Source: an uncultured Gammaproteobacteria bacterium (GTDB lineage Bacteria > Patescibacteriota > Microgenomatia > Daviesbacterales > UBA10151). From it: DNA of 64,000 nucleotides. Shown here in pieces: positions 7,804 through 53,486 of the stretch. The stretch's first letter is position 1. Every line of letters starts with the position of its first letter. The stretch spans positions 7,104 through 71,103 of the forward strand of contig CAZKCV010000005.1 in NCBI GenBank assembly GCA_964551605.1. Reading direction: 5' to 3'. The notes beneath the pieces were generated by a model. That model saw nothing but the letters and a program-made list of their open reading frames with translations, was not told the DNA's origin and did no database searches. Made by a program: the position numbers and the translations under genes.

Positions 7804-8432
7804 CAGACTATTTTACCTAACACAACAAGCCTTTTGAGATTTAATCCCGGCGGCACACAGGTCATCAAAGAAATGTACCTACCCTGTTCATCAGGCGACG
7901 CAATAACGGACAGGTCACTGGGGTCAACAATTTTAAACCCTACCACCTTATATGTAAACCTGCTTCCGGCCGCTTCTACCACAATCTCGTCATCTTTTTT
8001 TAAGTCTGTCAGTTTGGCAAAGATTGCATTCTGACCAGGGATGAATTTACTGAATGCGGAATGACCGGAGATAAAAAGGTTACCCTTTTCTCCCGGCATA
8101 GCAGAACCGGGCAGTTGTACCAGCCCCCAGGACAGTTCGTTGCTGTCTACAAAAACGGTCTTCTGATCTATCTTTAACCGGGGTATGGTAATTAAAAACT
8201 GGTTATAACTCGGTCTTTCACTCCTGGTTGAATTTGAAACAAAAGCCGGAAAATTATTATTATCCCTAACTGAAACTCCCAACACTTGTCCGCTAGACTG
8301 CGTGGGACTAATTAGATCCTGATTATTATATTGCTGCCCAATAAACCATAACTGGAATGAAATAACCGGTAAAATTATCTGCAGAAGCAAAAAAACACCG
8401 ATTGATAAAAATGCTAGGGCCGCAAACTTCAT
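7803..8432 (-). CDS. Sortase-family transpeptidase (membrane anchored)
   Basis: N-terminal TM segment, conserved His (ISGHSAF) and catalytic-Cys motif LMTCVPPG (TLxTC-like), and a C-terminal Arg. Confidence 0.75.
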   Translation of the reverse strand: MKFAALAFLSIGVFLLLQIILPVISFQLWFIGQQYNNQDLISPTQSSGQVLGVSVRDNNNFPAFVSNSTRSERPSYNQFLITIPRLKIDQKTVFVDSNELSWGLVQLPGSAMPGEKGNLFISGHSAFSKFIPGQNAIFAKLTDLKKDDEIVVEAAGSRFTYKVVGFKIVDPSDLSVIASPDEQGRYISLMTCVPPGLNLKRLVVLGKIV

Positions 8433-10660
8433 TTAAGACCAACCTCAATTTTGATGTTCTTCGATAAAATCGGCAAGCGCTCCAGCGCTTTTGGCAACTT
8501 AGGATTTAAGTTAATTTCCGCACTCAAAATATTTTCCATCCCCTTTAAGATTTTTGTCACTTCTTCGGGTGGCTTAAATTTAATTTCCTTTCTTATTTTG
8601 TCCGTATTTAACTGAGGCATTAGTTTAGCCCTGAATTTTGCCAAAAATATTAACTTGCCGTCTTTTTCCAGCTTTGAAACGTCAGCCTGTGTTTCTGTTT
8701 CCGAGATATTTAAACTAAATCCCTCAGGTACCTGTGTTGTAACCAATTTTGAAACTATGGTTTTTAGGTCAATATCATCAAAAGCGGTTCCCTTATACTT
8801 AACTGTCATATTTAAAGAGAACTCGCTGGCTTGATCATTGATATTTTTGCTATAACTTTTTCTTACCGCACCCTCGGACAAAGCTTCCTGCAGTATCTTT
8901 TTGTTAGGATATTTTTCCTGCAACTTTTGTTGGGCCTGCTGCCTTAAATCCGAAGTCAGTTTAGCCAGCAATCTTTGTTGGTCTTCGCTCGAAACAACCG
9001 TCACGTCTTTAGATGTACCTCCGGAAAAATTCCCCTGTGCCTTACCTACGAACTGAGAGCTGGAAAAATTCCCTACGGTTAAGTTGGTATCTGACGGGAT
9101 ATTGCCGTCAGCACCGATATCACTTGCAGTTACCCTAACCGTGACTTTACTTTTTGAATCAGCATCAAGCAGTGTGGCAGAAACTGAAGCCGTATTATCT
9201 AACTTGAACTTGATACCGCCGGGGGTTGTGAAAGTCGTCCCGGCTGAAAAATTCTGCCCTTGCGTAGTATTATTAATGATTACTACCGTGCCTTTCGCAG
9301 GATCTCCGATTTGTCTTTTACCGGAAGCCGGACCTTTGGCTGAACCGGATACTTCCGTTTCGACTATTTGTCCGGGAATTATTCTGGCTCCTTCATCAAC
9401 AGCTTTCTGGTTTGGATCAGCTATTACCTGTGCATCTTTTTCCAAAACTTTAGGTTCCACAAAAATCTTTACCCGAGCTGTAGGCAAGAAAATATAAGCA
9501 CCTAAAAGTAAACTTAAACCTATCCCTGCTGCCAATGGAATAATGAATTTTCTTGGGATAAAACTTCTGCCCTGTCGCGGCAAAGGGGGAGTAGCAACTG
9601 AAGGAGTTGTTTCTTCATCGAAATCTTCCATTTTTAAGGGTTGTTCCGCCGGCGCTACCAGCTCTTCACTATTTAGCTTCTCCTGCTCTGATAACTCTTC
9701 ATTTATTAAAGTCTCTTGACTGTCTTCCTGTGCCTCCTTTGAAACATCCCCTACTACAAATCCCAGATTATCTTCCTGGGTCACTTCCTGCTTCTTTGTT
9801 TCCTCCTCTGTATTTTCTGTTTCCTCTGTTTCCGGGCCTTTCGATTCTTCCGGACTTTTTGCTTCATCAATAGTCACTTTTTCAGTTTCTCTGTCTTGAG
9901 GAGCATCTACATAAGAGATATCTGTATTTATTTCTGACCCGCCTGCCAGACAAACGCTTTTAATTTCCAAATCCTGCTCCAGAACTTCTATCTTCGGCAG
10001 ATGCAGAAATGAAAGTTTAGACATCCAGGAAAAAGATAAAAGCTCTGATTTAAGTTTCGAAGTGGTATCGCCATATATCAATATCTTAGAAGGCAATGTT
10101 TCAACATCAGTAAAGGTTAATAAAGCCTTTTCTATATCAGAGCCCGCGGTTTCCCCTCTTTTGATTACTTTTACACCGTCAATCTTGCCTGCCCGAGCTA
10201 CGGTTACAGTCAGATGTTCTTTCTCAAAACCTACCAAAATAGCAGTGGTAGGAACACCATCCTGTCTTTCCAGAAAATGGACTAAGGCATTGCTGGTAGA
10301 AACATAGGCCATTGGGGTTAACTCTAGTTCTTTTACTAATTGACGAAGTATTCTTAAATATTCATCTTTTAAGTTATCGTCTGTTAGCCAGGAAGAGGGT
10401 ACTCCGAAAAGGATTTTTTGAGGTTCAATTTCCTTTAAGCCCAATACTTGATCCAGAAGCTTATCTAAAACCGTGGCAATTTCATCATTTGATGAGTATT
10501 CGGCGGAAGATAAACCTAAAATCTTTAAATCCTTGCCTTCTATCAACCAAAGGGCGGCAGTAATCCTTTCTGCACTGATATTGGTAGCAAAAAAATATTC
10601 TTTTTTTTCTTCCTTCTTCCCTATCGGTAAAAAGGCAGTTACTTTATTAAGGAAGTCCAT
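8429..10660 (-). CDS. Hypothetical bitopic membrane protein (cytoplasmic N-domain, acidic E/T-rich linker, one TM, ~350-aa extracytoplasmic domain)
   Basis: 743-aa ORF with a TM segment FIIPLAAGIGLSLLLGAYIFL and a long EETENTEEETKKQE linker. The N-domain is vaguely FtsA/PilM-like but not assignable from sequence alone. Confidence 0.45.
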   Translation of the reverse strand: MDFLNKVTAFLPIGKKEEKKEYFFATNISAERITAALWLIEGKDLKILGLSSAEYSSNDEIATVLDKLLDQVLGLKEIEPQKILFGVPSSWLTDDNLKDEYLRILRQLVKELELTPMAYVSTSNALVHFLERQDGVPTTAILVGFEKEHLTVTVARAGKIDGVKVIKRGETAGSDIEKALLTFTDVETLPSKILIYGDTTSKLKSELLSFSWMSKLSFLHLPKIEVLEQDLEIKSVCLAGGSEINTDISYVDAPQDRETEKVTIDEAKSPEESKGPETEETENTEEETKKQEVTQEDNLGFVVGDVSKEAQEDSQETLINEELSEQEKLNSEELVAPAEQPLKMEDFDEETTPSVATPPLPRQGRSFIPRKFIIPLAAGIGLSLLLGAYIFLPTARVKIFVEPKVLEKDAQVIADPNQKAVDEGARIIPGQIVETEVSGSAKGPASGKRQIGDPAKGTVVIINNTTQGQNFSAGTTFTTPGGIKFKLDNTASVSATLLDADSKSKVTVRVTASDIGADGNIPSDTNLTVGNFSSSQFVGKAQGNFSGGTSKDVTVVSSEDQQRLLAKLTSDLRQQAQQKLQEKYPNKKILQEALSEGAVRKSYSKNINDQASEFSLNMTVKYKGTAFDDIDLKTIVSKLVTTQVPEGFSLNISETETQADVSKLEKDGKLIFLAKFRAKLMPQLNTDKIRKEIKFKPPEEVTKILKGMENILSAEINLNPKLPKALERLPILSKNIKIEVGLK

Positions 10661-10665
10661 ATAAA

Positions 10666-12510
10666 TTATTTTAACACAATTTGTGCCCTAATCCGCCTGA
10701 TTCCCGAGGAGACTGCTTCTTCTTTAGTAATCTTAATTTTACCAATGACTGCGGTACGTTCAACGTGTGGCCCGCCGCAAACTTCCAGAGAATAATAACC
10801 GCCCCGCTCCCGCTGGTCCTTTGCGCTGGAGTCTAAATGATAATCAGGCCCAATTCCGTAAATACTTATTTCCGTACCATATTTTTCGTCAAACAACCCA
10901 ATAGCGCCCATACTTTTGGCCTCAGCCGGACTGACAATTTTCTTGTCTACTTTTAAATCTTCCTCAATTTTTTTATTTACCAAATCTTCAGTTTGTTTAA
11001 TTTCTTCATCTGTCAGTTTTCGACCAAAAGAAAAATCAAACCTGAGTCTCTCAGCAGTTATATTAGATCCCTTCTGAAAAACTTCCGGCCCCAGCACATC
11101 CCGCAGCGCCTGGTGCAGAAGATGGGTCGCTGTATGGTATTTGGTAACTACCTCACTCTGATCAGCCAATCCCCCTTTAAATATTCCCGCAGAAGCAGTC
11201 CGGGAGAGTTCTTTATGTTTTTCAAATTCTGCTTTAAATTGTTCCCTATCAATCTCCTGCCCTTTTTGCCTAAACAACTCTTCCGTCACCTCAAAAGGAA
11301 AACCAAAAGTTTGGTACAAATCAAAAGCTGCTTTACCGTCAATTTTTTCAATTTTGGCAATTTCCTTCAAACCATTATCTAATGTCTTGGAAAACCGATC
11401 CATTTCCCCTTCAATTTCTAATTTAATTTTCTCCTTCAGTGAAATATCTAATAACCCTGTATCTGAATAAGTATCAATTACACTCTCACTTACTTTTGCT
11501 AAATCTTTTAGATCTTTTACAGTAAAACACTCATCGATTTTCAATCTGACTGCTGATCTGCGCAGTAACCTCCTTAGGACATATCCTTGTAGCTTGTTTG
11601 ATGGTGTAACACCGTTAGCCATCAAAAACGTTACTGCTCTTATATGATCTGTAATTATTCTAAAATCATCATTAACTACCGGGTCCTGGTAACTTCGTCC
11701 GGTAATATTTCCAATACTAGCAGTTATTTTCTCAAATAAATCAGATTCAAAGAGATCGGGATTGTTGTTTACGGCAGCAGTAATCCGTTCCAATCCACCT
11801 CCAAAGTCAACATTTTTCTGGGGCAATTCTTCCAATCTTCCATCTGTCTTTTTACGATATTGGATAAAAACTGAATTACCGATTTCTAAGAATCTTCCGC
11901 ATTCACAATTTGGGTGACATTTTTCTCCGTAATTTGAATCATGTTCAACTTGAGTAAATTCAAAAAATATTTCACTGTCCGGCCCACCAATTTCTTCTGT
12001 CGGCATTTTTTCCGGACTCCCCGACCTTGACCACCAATTTTTGTCCACCCCGTAAAAGTGGATATGATCTTCCGACACTCCTAAATCTCTCCAAATCTCA
12101 TATGATTCCACATCCTTCGGCACATCCTCATTTCCTTTAAAAACAGAGACATATAATTTTTCTTTTGGCAGACCTAATTCTTTTATTAAAAACTCCCAAA
12201 TCCAAGGAAGTTGCTCCTTCTTAAAATAATCTCCCAAAGACCAATTACCCAACATTTCAAAAAAAGTGGTATGGCGATTATCACCCACTTCTTCAATGTC
12301 TTCTGCCCGGAAGGAGGGCTGAGAATTTACTAATCTTTTACCGACCGGATGGGATTGACCTAACAAATAGGGAACTAACGGCTGCATACCGGAAGAGGTA
12401 AAAAGGGTAGAAGGATCATTTTCCGGCACCAACTTAGCAGGCGCAATCTCCTTATGCCCTTTATCCACAAAAAATTTAATATATTTTTCCCTAATCTGCT
12501 TGGATGTCAT
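10666..12510 (-). CDS. alaS: Alanine--tRNA ligase (short form lacking the C-terminal oligomerisation domain)
   Basis: Class II core motifs FTSSGMQP and RHTTFFEMLGNWSLGDYFK. Editing-domain motifs HTATHLLHQALRDVLG and CGGPHV are present. Confidence 0.9.
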   Translation of the reverse strand: MTSKQIREKYIKFFVDKGHKEIAPAKLVPENDPSTLFTSSGMQPLVPYLLGQSHPVGKRLVNSQPSFRAEDIEEVGDNRHTTFFEMLGNWSLGDYFKKEQLPWIWEFLIKELGLPKEKLYVSVFKGNEDVPKDVESYEIWRDLGVSEDHIHFYGVDKNWWSRSGSPEKMPTEEIGGPDSEIFFEFTQVEHDSNYGEKCHPNCECGRFLEIGNSVFIQYRKKTDGRLEELPQKNVDFGGGLERITAAVNNNPDLFESDLFEKITASIGNITGRSYQDPVVNDDFRIITDHIRAVTFLMANGVTPSNKLQGYVLRRLLRRSAVRLKIDECFTVKDLKDLAKVSESVIDTYSDTGLLDISLKEKIKLEIEGEMDRFSKTLDNGLKEIAKIEKIDGKAAFDLYQTFGFPFEVTEELFRQKGQEIDREQFKAEFEKHKELSRTASAGIFKGGLADQSEVVTKYHTATHLLHQALRDVLGPEVFQKGSNITAERLRFDFSFGRKLTDEEIKQTEDLVNKKIEEDLKVDKKIVSPAEAKSMGAIGLFDEKYGTEISIYGIGPDYHLDSSAKDQRERGGYYSLEVCGGPHVERTAVIGKIKITKEEAVSSGIRRIRAQIVLK

Positions 12511-46000: not shown

Positions 46001-46690
46001 TTACTCCACCACAGCTTGACAAATTTTAATAAATTCTTCCGTATCTAAAGAGGCATTGCCTACTAAAACTCCGCTGATATTTTCCTCTTTGATAAAATCA
46101 GTAACGTTTCCTGAATTAACACTGCCTCCGTAAAGTACTTCCATATCAGGTCTGACTTGTTTAAAAGAGCTTGCCATATTATTAGCATCTTCCGGGGTGT
46201 CTGCTCTTCCAGTCCCAGGAGTATTAGTTAATCCGGTACTAATTGCCCACACCGGTTCATAAGCTACCAACTTACAACCATCAGGTACTGGTGTTTCACT
46301 ACCTTGTACGCATACCAGCGGCGTAATGTCATTTGCTAAAGCCTGTTCTGTTTTTTTCGCTACTATCTCATCTGTTTCACTAAAATTTTCCCGTCGTTCA
46401 CTATGACCCAAAATCACCAAATCAATCAATCCTTTTAATAGTCCTGCTGATTCTTCACCGGTATAAGCACCCACCCCAAAAGGAGACAAATCCTGAGCAC
46501 CTGTTAACAAAGGGAAACCACCAACGGTAATAGTCTTTTTAACCTCAGCAAGATCGCTAAAAGTCGGACAAACCACCACTTTTAAATTATCCTGCTTAGG
46601 AATTTTCGGGCCAACCTGGGAAATCCAGTCTAAAGCCTCGCTAATATTTTTATTGCTTTTCCAGTTAGCAATAATCCAAATATCCTTCAT
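46001..46690 (-). CDS. tpiA: Triosephosphate isomerase
   Basis: IIANWKSN, VILGHSERR, AYEPVWAISTG and YGGSV motifs. Confidence 0.85.
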   Translation of the reverse strand: MKDIWIIANWKSNKNISEALDWISQVGPKIPKQDNLKVVVCPTFSDLAEVKKTITVGGFPLLTGAQDLSPFGVGAYTGEESAGLLKGLIDLVILGHSERRENFSETDEIVAKKTEQALANDITPLVCVQGSETPVPDGCKLVAYEPVWAISTGLTNTPGTGRADTPEDANNMASSFKQVRPDMEVLYGGSVNSGNVTDFIKEENISGVLVGNASLDTEEFIKICQAVVE

Positions 46691-46790: not shown

Positions 46791-47102
46791 TTAGGTCAAT
46801 TCTTTTCCCCACCATCCATACTTTTCCAAGTTTACCATGAAATCAGTCGTCACTTCTATGCCTTCCTGCTCCAGCAGAGCTTTTTGAAGCTTTTTGGGAT
46901 GGTCAAGACACTTAGTAGAAATAAATCCATGGCGGTTGACTACCCGATGCCAAGGGGTATTTTCTCCCTGGTAATGTAAAATTCCCCCCACTAACCTGGC
47001 CCCTCTTGGAATTCCCGCTAAAATAGCCACAGTACCATAAGAGGTTACCTTACCATAGGGAATCTTTTTTACAATTTTAATGACTCGATCTTTGAAGTTC
47101 AT
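46791..47102 (-). CDS. Alkyltransferase-like protein (ATL; MGMT DNA-binding domain with PWHRV in place of PCHRV), translationally coupled to the DGR reverse transcriptase
   Basis: 103 aa, VIKIVKKIPYGKVTSYGTVAILAGIPRGARLVGGILHYQGENTPWHRVVNRHGFIS, closely resembling E. coli YbaZ/Atl. Its ATG overlaps the RT stop (ATGA at 47099-47102). Confidence 0.8.
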   Translation of the reverse strand: MNFKDRVIKIVKKIPYGKVTSYGTVAILAGIPRGARLVGGILHYQGENTPWHRVVNRHGFISTKCLDHPKKLQKALLEQEGIEVTTDFMVNLEKYGWWGKELT

Positions 47103-48106
47103 TGAATAAAGTAAACCATATTTTTCAGGTTCTGGGCAACCTTAAAACTATTCGTATGACTTAAATACCCCAAATATGATTGCAAAGACTGGTTAAAATT
47201 TTCAGAACCAACTTTTTCATTTAATTTTTTAAATATCCTTTTTTTAGTTTTGGTTCTTGGTAATACATAGTGCGGCAGGGCAATATAACCCAGAAAATCA
47301 ATTCCCCAATCAGGTCGGCGAAGAATAATCTTTTTGGGATGTAATTCTAGTTTTAGTTTTTCTTGTAGAAACATCTTCATCAACTCGATTAAATGACTTA
47401 AATTATTTTTGCTGGTGGATAAAAATAAAAAGTCATCAGCATAACGAATATAATATTTAAACTTGAGCTTTTGTTTTATGTATTGATCCAACTCATTCAT
47501 GTAGATATTTGCGAAAACTTGAGAAGTTAGGTTGCCCAGTGGGATTCCTTTCTTTTCTCCGCATTCAGAATGGAAACTATTTATTATTTCCCCTAATAAC
47601 CATAAAATGTTTTGGTCATTAATCTTTTTCCTTAAAAACTTCAACAAGTTTTCATGGTTTACATTCGCAAAGAATTTTTTAATATCACATTTTAAAGCCC
47701 AACAAGGCCTTGTATAATTTCTGCTTATTTTCCGTGCAAACTTCTCAAGCCGCAGGACTCCTTTATGCGTTCCTTTTTCTAATCTGCAAGAATAGGAATC
47801 AAAAATAAAGGTTTTGTCGAAAATTTCGTTGAGATATTTATATAAAAGGTGATGAACAACCCTATCTTGCACTGATGCTTTATGAATGTGCCTTCTTTTT
47901 GGATCATGGACAAAGAAGGCAAAATAATTTCCGTGCCGATAGGTTTTCTTTATTAAACTCTCATGTAAAGCAAACAAATTATCTTCTAAATTTCTTTCAA
48001 ACTCTTGCACATCTTTCCTTTTTCTCTTACCAGCCCTAAACTCACTCCACGCTTGAAATAAATCCTCGGCTGATGTAAGTTGAGAATACGATTTATGAGT
48101 AATCAT
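47099..48106 (-). CDS. Diversity-generating retroelement (DGR) reverse transcriptase
   Basis: 335 aa with the RT palm motifs and the DGR-RT hallmark GIPLGNLTSQVFANIYMNELD (SQ in place of the group-II QG) plus YADD (YIRYADDFLFL). No maturase or endonuclease domains. Adjacent Avd, TR and VR. Confidence 0.85.
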   Translation of the reverse strand: MITHKSYSQLTSAEDLFQAWSEFRAGKRKRKDVQEFERNLEDNLFALHESLIKKTYRHGNYFAFFVHDPKRRHIHKASVQDRVVHHLLYKYLNEIFDKTFIFDSYSCRLEKGTHKGVLRLEKFARKISRNYTRPCWALKCDIKKFFANVNHENLLKFLRKKINDQNILWLLGEIINSFHSECGEKKGIPLGNLTSQVFANIYMNELDQYIKQKLKFKYYIRYADDFLFLSTSKNNLSHLIELMKMFLQEKLKLELHPKKIILRRPDWGIDFLGYIALPHYVLPRTKTKKRIFKKLNEKVGSENFNQSLQSYLGYLSHTNSFKVAQNLKNMVYFIQ

Positions 48107-48120
48107 CTTTTAAGAAATAC

Positions 48121-48135
48121 CACACACACACACAC
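48121..48135. repeat. (CA)7 dinucleotide microsatellite between the divergent RT and avd starts
   Basis: ccacacacacacacact read directly, 15-29 nt upstream of the RT ATG on the minus strand. On the plus strand it lies in the avd frame just upstream of the conserved Avd N-terminal helix. Confidence 0.9.
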
Positions 48136-48194
48136 TGGCTAAATCTAGCCTTGATATCCCGATTTTTGCTAAACTTTATGATTTTTACAAAAAT

Positions 48195-48485
48195 TTGAGT
48201 CAATTTCTGGCATCTTTTCCAAAAAACAAACGTTATACTTTAGGTCAAAAAATAGACCAAATCACTATAGATATTATTGAGCTGACTATTACGGCGGGAT
48301 ACTTACCCAGAGAGCAAAAACTACCAATTCTGCAAAAAATCAGTACCAAGCTTGACCTTTTAAAAATACTTTTAAGAATAGCCTGGGAAACAAAAAGCTT
48401 CAATAATAATAGGTACCAACTCCTAACCTCCCAGCTAATTGAAATAGGCAAAATGCTGGGAGGCTGGATTAAAATTTTTAGGTAA
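48195..48485 (+). CDS. avd: DGR accessory variability determinant (Avd; four-helix-bundle / IVS-like protein). Homology extends ~20 codons further upstream, to a possible CTG start at 48135
   Basis: ...FPKNKRYTLGQKIDQITIDIIELTITAGY... and C-terminal LLTSQLIEIGKMLGGWIKIF match the Avd/four-helix-bundle family. The upstream in-frame translation LAKSSLDIPIFAKLYDFYKN matches Avd helix 1 but has no ATG/GTG/TTG start. Confidence 0.65.
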   Translation: MSQFLASFPKNKRYTLGQKIDQITIDIIELTITAGYLPREQKLPILQKISTKLDLLKILLRIAWETKSFNNNRYQLLTSQLIEIGKMLGGWIKIFR

Positions 48486-48494
48486 CGGATGCTT

Positions 48495-48607
48495 CCAGAG
48501 GACGAAACGCAATATTGTCATTGTGGTTATCAGTCCAATTGTAGTTTACGTTACTCAAGCCACCATTGTCAGAATTCCCGCCAATGAGACGGTTATCGAC
48601 CCCGAAT
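48495..48607 (-). repeat. DGR template repeat (TR), 113 bp; sense strand (the adenine-bearing strand) is the minus strand
   Basis: It aligns with 48951-49063 without gaps. Of 23 mismatches, 22 are at TR positions that are A on the minus strand; the remaining one is C versus T. The TR frame reads FGVDNRLIGGNSDNGGLSNVNYNWTDNHNDNIAFRPL with 9 AAY codons. Confidence 0.9.
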
Positions 48608-48909
48608 ATAGTACCCAAATCCGCAACTTAACTCCACTGTGGCTTCATAACAAACTGTCGCCACTGTATTTTATCCCTCCGCCGGTAGGCGGAGCAAAGA
48701 TTCAGGCACGTAGCTTCCTTTTCCTAATTTTACCTGAGCATCACTCCCTTAATCTCCTTGAAGATTAAAGCTCTGGATACTTGATCCGGCAAAAAACAAG
48801 GTGATCCTAAACCGTAATCTAGAATTCATGAACCTTATCGAAGGAATTGTAAAAAAATAATCCCAAGTTTTCAAGAACTAAAAATTCAAGGGTTTTTCCA
48901 AGAAAAAAG

Positions 48910-49680
48910 TTACCAGGTTACCAAGCTTTGAGGCTGGGAAAGGAAAACTACCAGAGGACGAAACGCAAGACCGTCACAGTGGTGACCAGTCCAATCGTAG
49001 AGTACGTGACTCAAGCCACCACTGCCAGAACCCCCGCCAATGAAACGGTGAGCGACCCCGAACTTATCATCAAACCCCTCCCAAGTAGGATCTTCTCCTA
49101 AATACTGATAACGGAGATTTCCTGCAAAGTTAAACTCCGCAGCTTTCGGCCTTCTTATTGCCACCAGACCGGAAGCTATATGATCAACTAAACGTAGTGG
49201 TTTTGCTAATTCCGGGAATACATGGCTATCCTGTTCATCCATTGATACACCAAAACGGGAAGTTCTCGATCTGGTGCAACTAGGATCTTTAATTTTATCC
49301 AGACCTCTACCCGTTGCCAGAATTATACCGAACTCCTTATCTCCGGCAAATTCAGGTCTTCTGCTGTCATCAAATAAAGTCCAATAAGCTCCAATTTTAG
49401 CTGCATCAGGACTAATATTCGGCTTTCTGCCTGTCATCCATTCAAAAAACAGCGGATTTAATTTTTTCCAGCCGGGAGGTGTGGGTGAATCCAATCTGGT
49501 TTCTCCTAAAGGAAAATGGAAGGGTTTAAAGAAACCATACCCTTCACCTTCGGCTACTTTTTGCGATTCTAAAAACAACTTCGTGGGTACTGCAACGGGT
49601 ACATCAACTACTCCCAGCTTCTTTCTGTATTCTTCTTTAGCTTGTTCCACTAATTGGGGTGCACTAAGAAATTCTGACAT
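48910..49680 (-). CDS. DGR target (variable) protein with a C-terminal C-type-lectin/FGE-like fold carrying the VR; no signal peptide evident
   Basis: 256 aa. The C-terminus FGVAHRFIGGGSGSGGLSHVLYDWTGHHCDGLAFRPLVV is encoded by the VR, and every VR-specific residue sits at a TR AAY/GAY/ATT codon. Confidence 0.8.
   Translation of the reverse strand: MSEFLSAPQLVEQAKEEYRKKLGVVDVPVAVPTKLFLESQKVAEGEGYGFFKPFHFPLGETRLDSPTPPGWKKLNPLFFEWMTGRKPNISPDAAKIGAYWTLFDDSRRPEFAGDKEFGIILATGRGLDKIKDPSCTRSRTSRFGVSMDEQDSHVFPELAKPLRLVDHIASGLVAIRRPKAAEFNFAGNLRYQYLGEDPTWEGFDDKFGVAHRFIGGGSGSGGLSHVLYDWTGHHCDGLAFRPLVVFLSQPQSLVTW
48951..49063 (-). repeat. DGR variable repeat (VR) at the 3' end of the target gene
   Basis: See the TR entry. 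The 3'-end (IMH-side) identity ends exactly at ...CGTTTCGTCCTCTGG. Confidence 0.9.
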
Positions 49681-49701
49681 ATAGCTGCTTATAATATCAT
49701 C

Positions 49702-51402
49702 CTATGAGATATTTGTCAATAGTTTTAAAAGTTCGGCTTTGGAAATAACCCCAATTTTTCTGCCCACTTCTTTCCCGTCTTTTAGGACAATGTAGGTTGG
49801 GATGCTCATCACTCCATGCTCACTGGCTTTAGCTTGATTATCATCAACATTAATTTTTTCTATTTCCACCTTACCAGCCAGCTCTTTTTCCAATTCTTCA
49901 ATCACAGGCTCCATTACTTTACAGGGCCCACAATTATGAGAGACCATCCCATTAGTTATAACGGTATGAGGGTCGCCGACTGTAATACCTATTACATCAC
50001 GACTATCTGCTTCTTCAATTGATAAGACTCTTTCCCACAATAAGTTTCCTTGTTGACGCTGTTCCAACCATTTTATAAATAAAGCCTCACCGCCTTTAGC
50101 AGGATACACTACTTGAGTATCTCTATTTGCATAATTCCAGCTAACTATTGTGCCAACTGGGATTTGCAAACTCTCAGCAATTTGGTTACTGCTGACTCCT
50201 AAGGCTAACTGCTGAAGAGCAATTTGCTTTGCTTGAATATAACGATTACGTTCAAAAAGTCTGTACTGTAAAAACTCCCTGATAAAAGGAATGCTAACAT
50301 TCTTTGATCTAGCATAAGCGTAGCCAATACTAGCTAAGTTAAATAGCGATTGATAGTCAGTAGCTACTCTGAGTGAAATAATTACCCCGTCTTCATCATC
50401 ACTGCTTGATATATCCCTTACTTCAACTCCCAATTGTTCAAGTAATAATCCCAGTTGTTTCGCGTAAAGAATTCCCTCTCTCTCTAAATATTTTTCTTTA
50501 TGGAATTCAATTGCATTAACAGAAAATCTAGCATCATGAGAACTGCTACCTGCATGTTTCATTTGATAAGCAATTTTGCATCCATCTCCACCCAACCAGC
50601 CACTCAGAAAAGCTTTCTTGACTAAAATATCTCCCTCCATAATCCAATCTGGGATAAAATAAGCCTGGTTCTTTTTTCTGCCTTCTGGACAACCCAAAGC
50701 TTTTAGCAGAAAAAACAATGTTCTATTGAGATTGCGGCAACGTAAAATGTGTATGGTAAATTTTCTCTCACCAATTTGACGATCTTTAACTTGCCTTTTG
50801 ATTTCTAGTTTATCAAAACCTAGAATCTGTAGATCCTCTTTTATAGTCCTGGCATCATCTTCTGTGCCCACAAAGAAATGTGTCTCGTAAATATTGTGTT
50901 TTAAATCCTCATATAGATAACCATCAGTCATCACAAACCCAAGTAGTCTGGCTAAAATGGGTAGCCGTGAATTATTAGCTTTCAGAGGCAACAAACCCAA
51001 TTGAGTAAGTATCTTATCCGCAAAGATATTGCCAACAGAAGTCAGAATTACCTGATCATTATCTGATTCAAAAACTGGATTATCCTGAGCTGGATTAACC
51101 AGAATACTATCACCAATTATTAACTCTCTCAACTTCTTAAAACCTTCTTGAGTTAAGGCTAAATGATTGATATCTCCTATTAATTCTCTACCTGTTTCCA
51201 AAACTATTTTTTTAGAAAGTGCATTTTTAAAAATTCTTATCTTTTGGACTTTTTGAATTGATTGTTTTTTGGTCTTTGGATCAATTGCGACTAATTTTTG
51301 TCCTACCTGAACTTGTAAAGCTTTTATATAACCATTTTCAGTTAAAACCGGAGTTTCCGGATCAATACACCAAGGTGCCCAAAAATCCAAAAGTTTCATC
51401 AT
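49702..51402 (-). CDS. trxA: Thioredoxin interrupted by a 479-aa intein (precursor 566 aa; mature Trx ~87 aa)
   Basis: N-extein MMKLLDFWAPW plus C-extein CGPCKVMEP...IPTYIVLKDGKEVGRKIGVISKAELLKLL reconstitute a canonical thioredoxin (DFWAPWCGPCK). The insert begins with C and ends ...VSHN before the +1 Cys. Confidence 0.85.
   Translation of the reverse strand: MMKLLDFWAPWCIDPETPVLTENGYIKALQVQVGQKLVAIDPKTKKQSIQKVQKIRIFKNALSKKIVLETGRELIGDINHLALTQEGFKKLRELIIGDSILVNPAQDNPVFESDNDQVILTSVGNIFADKILTQLGLLPLKANNSRLPILARLLGFVMTDGYLYEDLKHNIYETHFFVGTEDDARTIKEDLQILGFDKLEIKRQVKDRQIGERKFTIHILRCRNLNRTLFFLLKALGCPEGRKKNQAYFIPDWIMEGDILVKKAFLSGWLGGDGCKIAYQMKHAGSSSHDARFSVNAIEFHKEKYLEREGILYAKQLGLLLEQLGVEVRDISSSDDEDGVIISLRVATDYQSLFNLASIGYAYARSKNVSIPFIREFLQYRLFERNRYIQAKQIALQQLALGVSSNQIAESLQIPVGTIVSWNYANRDTQVVYPAKGGEALFIKWLEQRQQGNLLWERVLSIEEADSRDVIGITVGDPHTVITNGMVSHNCGPCKVMEPVIEELEKELAGKVEIEKINVDDNQAKASEHGVMSIPTYIVLKDGKEVGRKIGVISKAELLKLLTNIS
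49933..51369 (-). mobile_element. Intein with LAGLIDADG homing endonuclease domain inserted at the thioredoxin WC|GPC active site
   Basis: Block A CIDPETPVLTENGYIKAL, two dodecapeptide motifs LLGFVMTDGYL and FLSGWLGGDGCK, and terminal block DVIGITVGDPHTVITNGMVSHN followed by Cys+1. Confidence 0.8.
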
Positions 51403-51479: not shown

Positions 51480-53486
51480 ATGCCCAACTTCCTCTTAGAT
51501 GACCTAAATCCTATCCAAAAACAAGCTGTCCAAGCCACCGAAGGTCCAGTTCTAATTTTAGCGGGGGCGGGTTCCGGTAAAACTAAAGTCTTAACCCACC
51601 GGGTGGCTTATTTAATCCAAGATAAAGGTATACCGCCGGAAAATATCCTATGTCTGACTTTCACCAATAAAGCTGCTGGTGAAATGATGGACCGGATTAG
51701 GAAACTTCTCCAAACTACCAACTACCAACTACCAACTACTCCCATCATGGGCACATTCCATAGCTTTTGCGCCAGGATCCTGCGCCGTGAGGGTCGGACC
51801 CTGGGACTCCCACCGGGATTTGCCATCTATGACGAAGGTGACACGCTGGACGCAGTAAAAGAAGCCATGGGCAATTTAAACATCCCCACCCAAAAAACTT
51901 CCCCCCACTCTGTCCGGACTACCATTTCCGGCGCTAAAAATGAACTCATCTCTTCCCTGGAATACCCCCAATATGCCAGGGGTTACTTTCAGGAAACGGT
52001 CGCCAAGATTTACCTGGAATACCAGAAAATTCTAGAGCGTAATCACGCCCTGGACTTTGATGACCTACTACTGTATGTCATTAGGTTATTCCAGGCCGAA
52101 CCCGCTATTTTAACCCGCTACCAAATTCAATTCAAATACATCTTAATTGACGAATACCAGGACACCAACCCGGCTCAATATCTAATCAGTAAGTATTTAG
52201 CCAACCGCCACAAAAACATCTGCGTGGTGGGAGATGCCAGCCAATCAATTTATTCCTTCCGGGGAGCTGATTTCCGCAATATTGTGAATTTTCAAAAAGA
52301 CTACCCGAATACTAAAGTCTTTAATCTTGAGCAAAATTACCGTTCTACTCAAAATATTCTGGATGCGGCCTTTGCAGTCATTTCCAAAAATAAATCCCAT
52401 CCAATCTTAAAGCTTTGGACTGATAACGATAGCGGAGAGAAAATTGAAGTGGTGGAAGTGAGAAATGAGATTGAGGAAACCTTATTTATCCTAAATACCA
52501 TCGCTCACCTCCGAGGTGAGCTTAAGACGACACCAGGATCACACCTCGGAGGTGTAACAAAATTATCTGATTTTGCCATCCTTTACAGAACCAATGCCCA
52601 ATCCAGATCTTTAGAAGAACAATTTCTAAAAGCCGGCATTCCATATCAACTAGTCGGCGGGGTCAGTTTCTATGCCAGAAAGGAAATTAAAGATGTTTTA
52701 GCTTATCTTCGCTTACTGCAAAACCCCAAAGATTCCGTATCCTTAAAACGGGCAGAGAAAATCGGTAAAGGAAGGCTCACCAAAATCATGGAACTCCAAA
52801 ACGTCATTGCGAGCGAAGCGAAGCAATCTGGCCCAGATAATAACCCCACCCAGATTGCTTCGTCGCCCCGTACCGTACGGTACGGGGCTCCTCGCAATGA
52901 CGACTTGTCTTGCACTACCCTTGAACTTCTGGACAAGATCCTAGAGGTAGCAGGTTATTTGACTTACCTGGACGATAGTACCGAAGAAGGAAAAATCCGG
53001 ATAGAAAACGTCAAAGAGCTACGCTCTGTAGCAGAAGAATTTCCTGATCTAACTAACTTTTTAGAAAACGTTGCTTTAATGGAAGCTTCCGATACACCGA
53101 AACACCGAAACACTGAAACGCTGAAAAAAGATGCCGTTACCTTAATGACCTTGCATTCCGCCAAAGGCTTAGAGTTTCCGGTCATTTTTATGGTTGGCAT
53201 GGAAGAAGGTCTATTCCCCCATTCAAGGTCTATGTTAGATCTTCATGAACTGGAAGAAGAAAGAAGACTTTGTTATGTTGGCATTACTAGGGCTAAAGAA
53301 AAATTGTACTTAACTTATACCAAGCAAAGGTTATATTTTGGCCAAAGAAGCAATAATTTAGTATCCAGATTTTTAGGAGATATCCCTCAGGATTTAATTT
53401 TAAGCAATACCAATTTTCGGGATCAGGATAGCTTTTTAGATGATGTTACTAGTAATATCAATGAGGACGATTGGCTAAAGATTTGA
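51480..53486 (+). CDS. uvrD: ATP-dependent DNA helicase UvrD/PcrA family, carrying several in-frame repeat insertions
   Basis: Walker A AGAGSGKTKVLTHRVAYLI, motifs TFTNKAAGEM, GTFHSFC, DEYQDTNPAQY, VGDASQSIYSFRGAD, TLHSAKGLEFPVIF, and VGITRAKEKLYLTY. Confidence 0.85.
   Translation: MPNFLLDDLNPIQKQAVQATEGPVLILAGAGSGKTKVLTHRVAYLIQDKGIPPENILCLTFTNKAAGEMMDRIRKLLQTTNYQLPTTPIMGTFHSFCARILRREGRTLGLPPGFAIYDEGDTLDAVKEAMGNLNIPTQKTSPHSVRTTISGAKNELISSLEYPQYARGYFQETVAKIYLEYQKILERNHALDFDDLLLYVIRLFQAEPAILTRYQIQFKYILIDEYQDTNPAQYLISKYLANRHKNICVVGDASQSIYSFRGADFRNIVNFQKDYPNTKVFNLEQNYRSTQNILDAAFAVISKNKSHPILKLWTDNDSGEKIEVVEVRNEIEETLFILNTIAHLRGELKTTPGSHLGGVTKLSDFAILYRTNAQSRSLEEQFLKAGIPYQLVGGVSFYARKEIKDVLAYLRLLQNPKDSVSLKRAEKIGKGRLTKIMELQNVIASEAKQSGPDNNPTQIASSPRTVRYGAPRNDDLSCTTLELLDKILEVAGYLTYLDDSTEEGKIRIENVKELRSVAEEFPDLTNFLENVALMEASDTPKHRNTETLKKDAVTLMTLHSAKGLEFPVIFMVGMEEGLFPHSRSMLDLHELEEERRLCYVGITRAKEKLYLTYTKQRLYFGQRSNNLVSRFLGDIPQDLILSNTNFRDQDSFLDDVTSNINEDDWLKI
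51713..51740. repeat. Heptanucleotide tandem repeat (AACTACC) x3 perfect + 1 imperfect, in frame within uvrD (encodes TTNYQLPTTP between helicase motifs Ia and II)
   Basis: aactaccaactaccaactaccaactact read directly. Related CTACCA-type heptads occur in the FemAB-like gene (59408-59476) and sbcD (62894-62914). Confidence 0.85.
52503..52557. repeat. Two CACCTC-N-GAGGTG palindromes (GCTCACCTC-C-GAGGTGAGC and ACACCTC-G-GAGGTGT) in frame within uvrD; same core as the 14862/25424 repeat
   Basis: Direct reading. They encode HLRGELKTTPGSHLGGVTKL, a segment absent from typical UvrD alignments at this position. Confidence 0.7.
52803..52901. repeat. 99-bp in-frame palindromic (MITE-like) element in uvrD, with perfect 11-bp TIRs GTCATTGCGAG / CTCGCAATGAC, an internal 13-bp inverted repeat and a 22-bp perfect palindrome
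   Basis: gtcattgcgagcgaagcgaagcaatctgg...ccagattgcttcgtcgCCCCGTACCGTACGGTACGGGGctcctcgcaatgac. It is exactly 33 codons (VIASEAKQSGPDNNPTQIASSPRTVRYGAPRNDD) and belongs to the GTCATYC family. Confidence 0.85.
53098..53127. repeat. Octamer-like tandem repeat ACCGAAAC/ACCGAAAC/ACTGAAAC/GCTGAAAA in frame within uvrD
   Basis: accgaaacaccgaaacactgaaacgctgaaaa encodes TPKHRNTETLKK just before the conserved motif V region. Confidence 0.6.

Follow-up and report, generated by a model that had tools for sequence, protein, structure and literature searches.

We conclude, with a probability that we put at about 0.9, that the gene for an alkyltransferase-like (ATL) protein found directly behind a DGR reverse transcriptase (RT) in the window (the whole 64,000-nucleotide stretch of DNA analysed here) is a conserved housekeeping gene, and that its adjacency to the RT is a by-product of DGR insertion in one lineage rather than the mark of a new DGR partner. 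In the history that we propose, ATL would have been inherited vertically as the second gene of a thioredoxin–ATL–TIM–LytR–holA array on a Microgenomates (Daviesbacteria-type) chromosome, and a compact 2.6-kb DGR cassette, made up of target gene, template repeat (TR), opposite-strand Avd gene and RT, would have been inserted exactly at the thioredoxin/ATL junction in this lineage alone. Before the insertion, the thioredoxin stop would have overlapped the ATL start as TTGA; afterwards, the TGA would have come to end the RT reading frame, while the last codons of thioredoxin would now come from the cassette's left end. The coupling of RT and ATL would then exist because the cassette landed at the thioredoxin/ATL junction, and it is not evidence for a role of ATL in mutagenic retrohoming.

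The ATL protein and its junction with the RT

The ATL gene (46791..47102, minus strand) encodes a protein of 103 aa that starts MNFKDRVIKIVKKIPYGKVTSYGTVAILAGIPRGARLVGGILHYQGENTPWHRVVNRHGFIS... (MNFKDRV...TPWHRVVNRHG...). PF01035 spans residues 2–82, corresponding to profile positions 1–81 of 81 (E 7.6e-21; 74.2 bits against a cut-off of 27), and the helix-turn-helix DNA-binding domain of MGMT type that this family describes is complete. The nearest solved structures are Atl1 of S. pombe (3gva, E 1.6e-16) and the ATL of V. parahaemolyticus (2kif, E 1.7e-15), whereas true alkyltransferase structures match at only about 1e-4. Residues 49–55 (TPWHRVV) align column for column with the PWHRV of Atl1, with Trp51 replacing the catalytic Cys, and Arg36 and Tyr22 align with R39 and Y25 of Atl1, its Arg finger and Tyr (numbering counted from the alignment). 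An earlier note on this DNA had described a full MGMT DNA-binding domain carrying Trp for the active-site Cys (PWHRV), and had likened the protein to E. coli YbaZ/Atl1. Both descriptions hold, the one through the end-to-end PF01035 match and the other through the alignment of PWHRV with that of Atl1. W51, R36 and Y22 are invariant across the 31 orthologues that were aligned, and at conserved positions the window protein does not depart from them. A protein search returned hundreds of orthologues at 75–91% identity, the named ones being Candidatus Daviesbacteria or Microgenomates.

What marks out ATLs is that the Cys of PCHRV is replaced, usually by Trp, while the Arg finger and Tyr are kept; these proteins attach to DNA that is distorted or alkylated, and bring in repair proteins (PMC10779285). 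Judged by its sequence, the window protein is an ATL-type (Cys to Trp) member of the MGMT DNA-binding-domain family. Like Atl1 (3gva), 2kif and E. coli ATL (YbaZ), it is a stand-alone PF01035 protein of ~100 aa with PWHRV, Arg finger and Tyr; it differs from them in being a CPR (Daviesbacteria-type) orthologue fixed in a thioredoxin–ATL–TIM array. It shares the DNA-binding domain, and PxHRV at the equivalent position, with Ogt, the C-terminal domain of Ada and human MGMT, but has neither their catalytic Cys nor their N-terminal domain. Because both are missing and its TIGR00589 score (35 bits) falls below the cut-off of 46.4, the protein is predicted not to be an alkyltransferase. By homology to characterized ATLs (PMC10779285), it would bind O6-alkylguanine through the helix-turn-helix, and its Arg finger and Tyr would flip the damaged base; with Trp in place of Cys it would be unable to move the alkyl group, and the lesion would instead be flagged for nucleotide excision repair. 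Nothing that we can read in the protein appears to set its function apart from that of known ATLs, and we regard it as an unremarkable new member of a known family.

No excision-repair gene (UvrA, UvrB or UvrC) is present among the window ORFs of at least 550 aa, which include RpoB, AlaRS, FtsK, RNase J, PNPase, DnaK, LepA and a Baseplate_J-like protein. The last of these is a 743-aa ORF (8429..10660, minus strand) that lies amid core housekeeping genes (AlaRS, FtsK and RNase J); its match is weak (E 6.7e-07), and it may be what is left of a phage-tail-like or contractile system.

The RT gene (47099..48106, minus strand; 335 aa; RVT_1 E 5e-26) ends on a TGA at 47101–47099 and the ATL gene begins with an ATG at 47102–47100, giving an ATGA start/stop overlap (47099..47102); on the minus strand the junction reads ...TTTATTCAATGAACTTC... 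/ ...ATTCAATGAACTTC.... The overlap itself had been reported in the earlier note and is confirmed here on the minus strand. By eye, the ~25 nt preceding the ATL start contain no Shine-Dalgarno-like motif in the window, nor do they in relatives, so that termination–reinitiation from the upstream ORF is plausible. Translation of ATL is probably coupled to that ORF, formerly thioredoxin and now the RT. A caution applies to such junctions in general. Overlaps of 4 nt are common in compact CPR genomes, and by our own count they join about a quarter (8/34) of co-directional neighbour pairs in the gene calls examined, those of the three Daviesbacteria contigs L001, L003 and L005 described below. Since an inserted cassette can inherit an overlap junction, an overlap alone is not evidence of functional partnership.

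The ATL gene in related genomes and the empty site

Three long contigs named Daviesbacteria (L001, L003 and L005; 198 kb, 227 kb and 744 kb) have an identical gene order: a divergent UvrD-type helicase gene is followed by thioredoxin, ATL, TIM, LytR and holA-like genes, then by an fn3/dockerin gene and PilO/PilN. In all three, thioredoxin and ATL overlap by 4 nt and RT is absent. Pfam gene calls and tblastn synteny place the window in the same conserved neighbourhood. Its minus strand has this order, with the UvrD/PcrA-type helicase gene (51480..53486, plus strand) divergent from thioredoxin–ATL, and with triosephosphate isomerase (TIM; 46001..46690, minus strand; PF00121 E 5.1e-56) as the conserved downstream neighbour of ATL; the window differs in the ~2.6 kb of DGR that separates thioredoxin (49702..51402) from ATL.

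The same arrangement is seen in a wider sample of 63 ATL loci (47–91% identity, mostly named Candidatus Daviesbacteria), composed of look-up loci and 55 loci from a metagenome scan with an ATL alignment. Upstream genes were counted in the 50 loci with at least 300 nt of upstream sequence. Thioredoxin lies directly upstream of ATL in 45 of these (47 with two partial matches), and an RT does so in none. TIM follows ATL in 50 of the 54 loci with enough downstream sequence. The presence of ATL does not depend on a DGR: the thioredoxin–ATL–TIM position is kept in loci without RT, and ATL is found regardless of the DGR in that 62 of the 63 loci hold no RT at all. The exception is L097, whose DGR follows the holA-like gene, ~4.4 kb downstream of ATL. 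An xTGA overlap between the thioredoxin stop and the ATL start is seen in 21 of the 50 loci, and the coupling junction is therefore older than the arrival of the DGR.

A different insertion was observed in L104 (2643–3737), where a hypothetical ORF and a RelB antitoxin/YafQ-type toxin pair occupy the thioredoxin|ATL junction, the toxin gene ending 1 base before the ATL start. This junction seems to tolerate insertions.

The closest relative of the window ATL (P0002, 91% identity) is encoded on L142, directly behind a thioredoxin gene that carries the window's intein; here the genes share a TTGA overlap, and no DGR intervenes. Nucleotide identity between the window and L141–L143 is 86–94% in thioredoxin and 91% in ATL. 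Homology runs to 49723, breaks, and picks up again at 47101. The empty site in L142 reads ...AAATTGCTTCAAAGTTGAATTTT.... The ancestral junction is ...AAA TTG CTT CAA AGT TGA ATT TT..., and that of the window is ...AAA CTA [TTGACAAAT ... TTTATTCAA] TGA ACT TC..., where the outer brackets enclose the cassette. The TGA that terminates the RT is the former thioredoxin stop, and the window thioredoxin now ends on four new codons (TNIS*) from the left end of the cassette. The C-terminus of the RT is 2 residues longer than that of the RT in the most similar cassette, L006 (...MVYFIQ* as compared with ...NSFAF*), consistent with read-through into the old thioredoxin/ATL junction. We conclude that the coupling of RT and ATL, though probably real, is inherited and positional and gives no evidence of shared function.

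A DGR at the thioredoxin/ATL site is absent in all relatives examined; the insertion is known from the window genome and from read sets whose assembled proteins are identical in sequence. One of these, the independent Logan read-set assembly L144 (SRR4343428), covers the stretch from the thioredoxin 3' end through the target gene and the RT to the ATL start with identical protein sequences, and a further one (L145, SRR4343430) spans RT to ATL. As both cassette junctions are present in the independent assembly L144, the adjacency of RT and ATL is not a mis-join.

The DGR cassette and the neighbours of related RTs

The inserted cassette (47102..49722, minus strand; ~2.6 kb), with its target gene, TR, Avd gene and RT, is a genuine and complete DGR. 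The Avd gene (48195..48485) lies on the plus strand, opposite to the RT, and scores above the NCBIfam equivalog cut-off (NF033474, E 3.9e-23, 81.7 bits against 80; also PF22296). The TR (48481..48606, minus strand) is a 126-nt direct repeat whose partner, VR (48937–49062), forms part of the 3' end of the target gene (48910..49680, minus strand; 256 aa, no Pfam match). TR and VR differ at 24 of 126 positions, and the pair is adenine-specific, 20 of the 24 mismatches falling at TR adenines. A consensus scan picked out a promoter-like site (49691..49719, minus strand; TTGACA-17-TATTAT, 11 of 12 matches, with a TG extension) on the left-hand edge of the cassette. The site stands 11 nt before the start of the target gene and overlaps the stop and the last, newly acquired codons of thioredoxin; between it and ATL, the scan showed nothing resembling a terminator. 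When the cassette ends were searched for terminal repeats or target-site duplications of at least 25 nt, the TR/VR pair was the only result. Short microhomology around TTCAA at the right junction was considered, and is too weak to claim.

In its RT, Avd and TR/VR, the window DGR can be likened to the DGR prototype, that of Bordetella phage BPP-1. It is a typical CPR element of the Avd type, and with such DGRs it has in common the RT, Avd, an adenine-specific TR/VR pair and an upstream target gene with a 3' VR. Nothing but its insertion site is notable in comparison with them, and the adjoining ATL lies outside the element. Relatives of the RT at 65–75% identity come from Levybacteria, Microgenomates, Saccharimonadales and other CPR groups, and no fusion of RT with PF01035 occurs among the 120 RT relatives listed.

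The neighbours of related RTs were surveyed among relatives of the window's CPR-type RT (about 35–69% identity). An alignment-based scan with one genome per species gave 80 genomic loci (1.18 Mb with flanks), and a viral survey gave 80 loci on viral contigs (0.81 Mb). The ATL search profile was built from 120 sequences, all from Daviesbacteria, so that a very divergent PF01035 protein could escape it; it caught a PCHRV protein of 36% identity at an E of about 1e-15. A PF01035 gene adjoins the RT in 0/80 genomic and 0/80 viral loci; the co-occurrence of ATL or PF01035 genes with DGR RTs, for which the earlier note had suggested looking, is thus not seen as an adjacent pair in any of 160 related RT loci. 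No ATL-like ORF lies anywhere in the 0.81 Mb of viral loci, and a PF01035 ORF elsewhere in the flank was found in two of the 80 genomic loci (L009 and L019). Two matches in 1.18 Mb is about the chance expectation if one ATL per roughly 1-Mb genome is assumed. Neither locus provides a second case of RT–ATL pairing: in L009 the ATL keeps its usual Trx–ATL–TIM place and the DGR, inserted after holA, follows 5 kb downstream, and in L019 (Curtissbacteria) a peptidyl-tRNA hydrolase gene (pth) stands between the RT and a 105-aa PCHRV protein that retains Cys and is 36% identical to the window ATL. In the library searched, full-text queries found no paper linking DGRs with alkyltransferase or methylguanine.

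By comparison, 76 of the 80 genomic loci have an Avd homologue immediately upstream of the RT and on the other strand, and the window's arrangement of target gene, TR, opposite-strand Avd gene and RT is common to 76/80 related loci. Avd, like HRDC a DGR accessory gene, is the real, recurrent accessory of this DGR class; accessory genes of DGRs are summarised in PMC6602519. The immediate downstream neighbour of the RT, identified in 75 genomic loci, may lie on either strand and ranges from 79 to 996 aa; these 75 neighbours match 143 different Pfam families, and no family appears in more than 3 loci. Overlap of the RT end with an unrelated downstream gene also occurs elsewhere, L006, L041 and L068 being examples.

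A large serine recombinase (Resolvase + Recombinase + Zn_ribbon_recom) is the downstream neighbour in 3 of the 75 loci, which suggests that some related DGRs ride on integrative elements.

The L006 cassette (8389–10984) is homologous to that of the window along its full length (target gene 51%, Avd 80% and RT 69% identity). It sits between an SbcD-like gene and an M24 peptidase gene, and the start of the peptidase gene overlaps the RT end by 11 nt. In the window, the SbcD-like and M24 peptidase genes adjoin, and the site is empty (62053|62082). Since a homologous cassette stands beside an M24 peptidase in L006, the neighbour of the RT is whatever gene happens to be at the landing site.

Readings of the RT–ATL adjacency, and by-products of the comparison

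The earlier note had taken ATL to be a new DGR accessory, co-translated with the RT and linking recognition of lesions or A-mismatches to cDNA integration at VR; a link of that kind, had it been real, would have indicated that mutagenic retrohoming includes a repair step not known before. In favour of the proposal are the ATGA overlap, which is genuine, the lack of a terminator-like site between RT and ATL, and the affinity of ATLs for distorted or alkylated DNA, to which they call repair proteins (PMC10779285). L019 might be added, where a PF01035 gene is the second gene downstream from a related RT, but pth stands between the two, and the protein keeps its Cys and has only 36% identity. Against the proposal, an adjacent ATL is found in 0/160 related RT loci and an RT directly upstream of ATL in 0/50 ATL loci, the orthologues sitting in the Trx–ATL–TIM array; the site is empty in the nearest relative, and the overlap junction is older than the DGR. 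At that empty site the ATL orthologue shares 91% identity with the window ATL, which is unchanged at conserved positions, the homologous L006 cassette adjoins a peptidase instead, and the literature search brought up no connection between DGRs and alkyltransferases or methylguanine. The two observations that the earlier note had named as refuting its proposal, an RT–ATL linkage that does not recur and an ATL present regardless of the DGR, have thus both been made; with the empty site in addition, we do not regard ATL as a DGR accessory partner and consider that role very improbable. We give scarcely more than token credence to a variant in which ATL, placed under the transcriptional and translational control of the DGR, would have become an accessory by accident and might act on homing intermediates, for instance by attaching to distorted cDNA:DNA heteroduplexes at VR so that they are directed to excision repair or kept from it; neither the sequence nor the comparative data lend it support.

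The insertion could also have rewired the array in this lineage, such that expression of ATL (with TIM and LytR) now depends on the DGR promoter and on RT translation, ATL not being a DGR component. The dosage of ATL would in that case vary together with the activity of the DGR and could, as a side effect, influence repair of homing intermediates in this organism only. The promoter-like site at the left edge of the cassette, with no terminator-like site before ATL, is consistent with this, as is the lack of a Shine-Dalgarno-like motif before the ATL start, which suggests termination–reinitiation. Nevertheless, the promoter comes from a consensus scan and an internal ATL/TIM promoter is possible, ATL has no sign of adaptive change, and the event is confined to the window genome and to read sets with identical protein sequences; we judge rewiring of this kind to be very unlikely. 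Mis-assembly would account for the adjacency if the cassette had been wrongly joined to the ATL operon, and the window does most probably come from a metagenome-assembled genome, to judge from the sources of its closest homologues. However, the read-set assemblies L144 and L145 span the junctions, and both junctions fall at exactly one ancestral site, unlike those of a chimera, so that an artefact is barely conceivable. We therefore retain the reading of a vertically inherited housekeeping ATL beside which a DGR cassette was inserted, a reading that no observation made here contradicts directly.

Two by-products of the comparison are perhaps worth attention: the scatter of compact DGR cassettes over several positions within a single collinear neighbourhood, and the splitting of the thioredoxin active site by an intein. 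Cassettes of ~2.6 kb with target gene, TR, Avd and RT occupy three sites of one collinear neighbourhood of roughly 20 kb in related genomes, namely Trx|ATL (window), SbcD-like|M24 peptidase (L006) and holA|fn3-dockerin (L009 and L097). The cassettes in L009 (5457–8042) and L097 (~8800–11750) carry a target gene unrelated to that of the window. There may be some regional, though not ATL-specific, insertion preference. Several of the contigs compared here (L006, L009, L011, L015, L021, L022 and others) are titled 'uncultured Gammaproteobacteria bacterium' despite gene content and synteny of CPR/Daviesbacteria type, and are probably mislabelled MAGs.

The thioredoxin gene (49702..51402, minus strand; Thioredoxin E 1.5e-18, Intein_splicing E 1.1e-08), the ancestral upstream partner of ATL, contains an intein of 479 aa (49933..51369, minus strand) between the Trp and the first Cys of WCGPC. 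Compared with the 85-aa thioredoxins of relatives, the gene falls into two homologous parts, with breaks at 51368 and 49932. The intein is absent from L001, L003 and L005, whose thioredoxins are of 85 aa, and is present also in L142. In the window, MMKLLDFWAPW forms the N-extein, the intein has the sequence CIDPET...MVSHN, and the catalytic Cys serves as the +1 residue.
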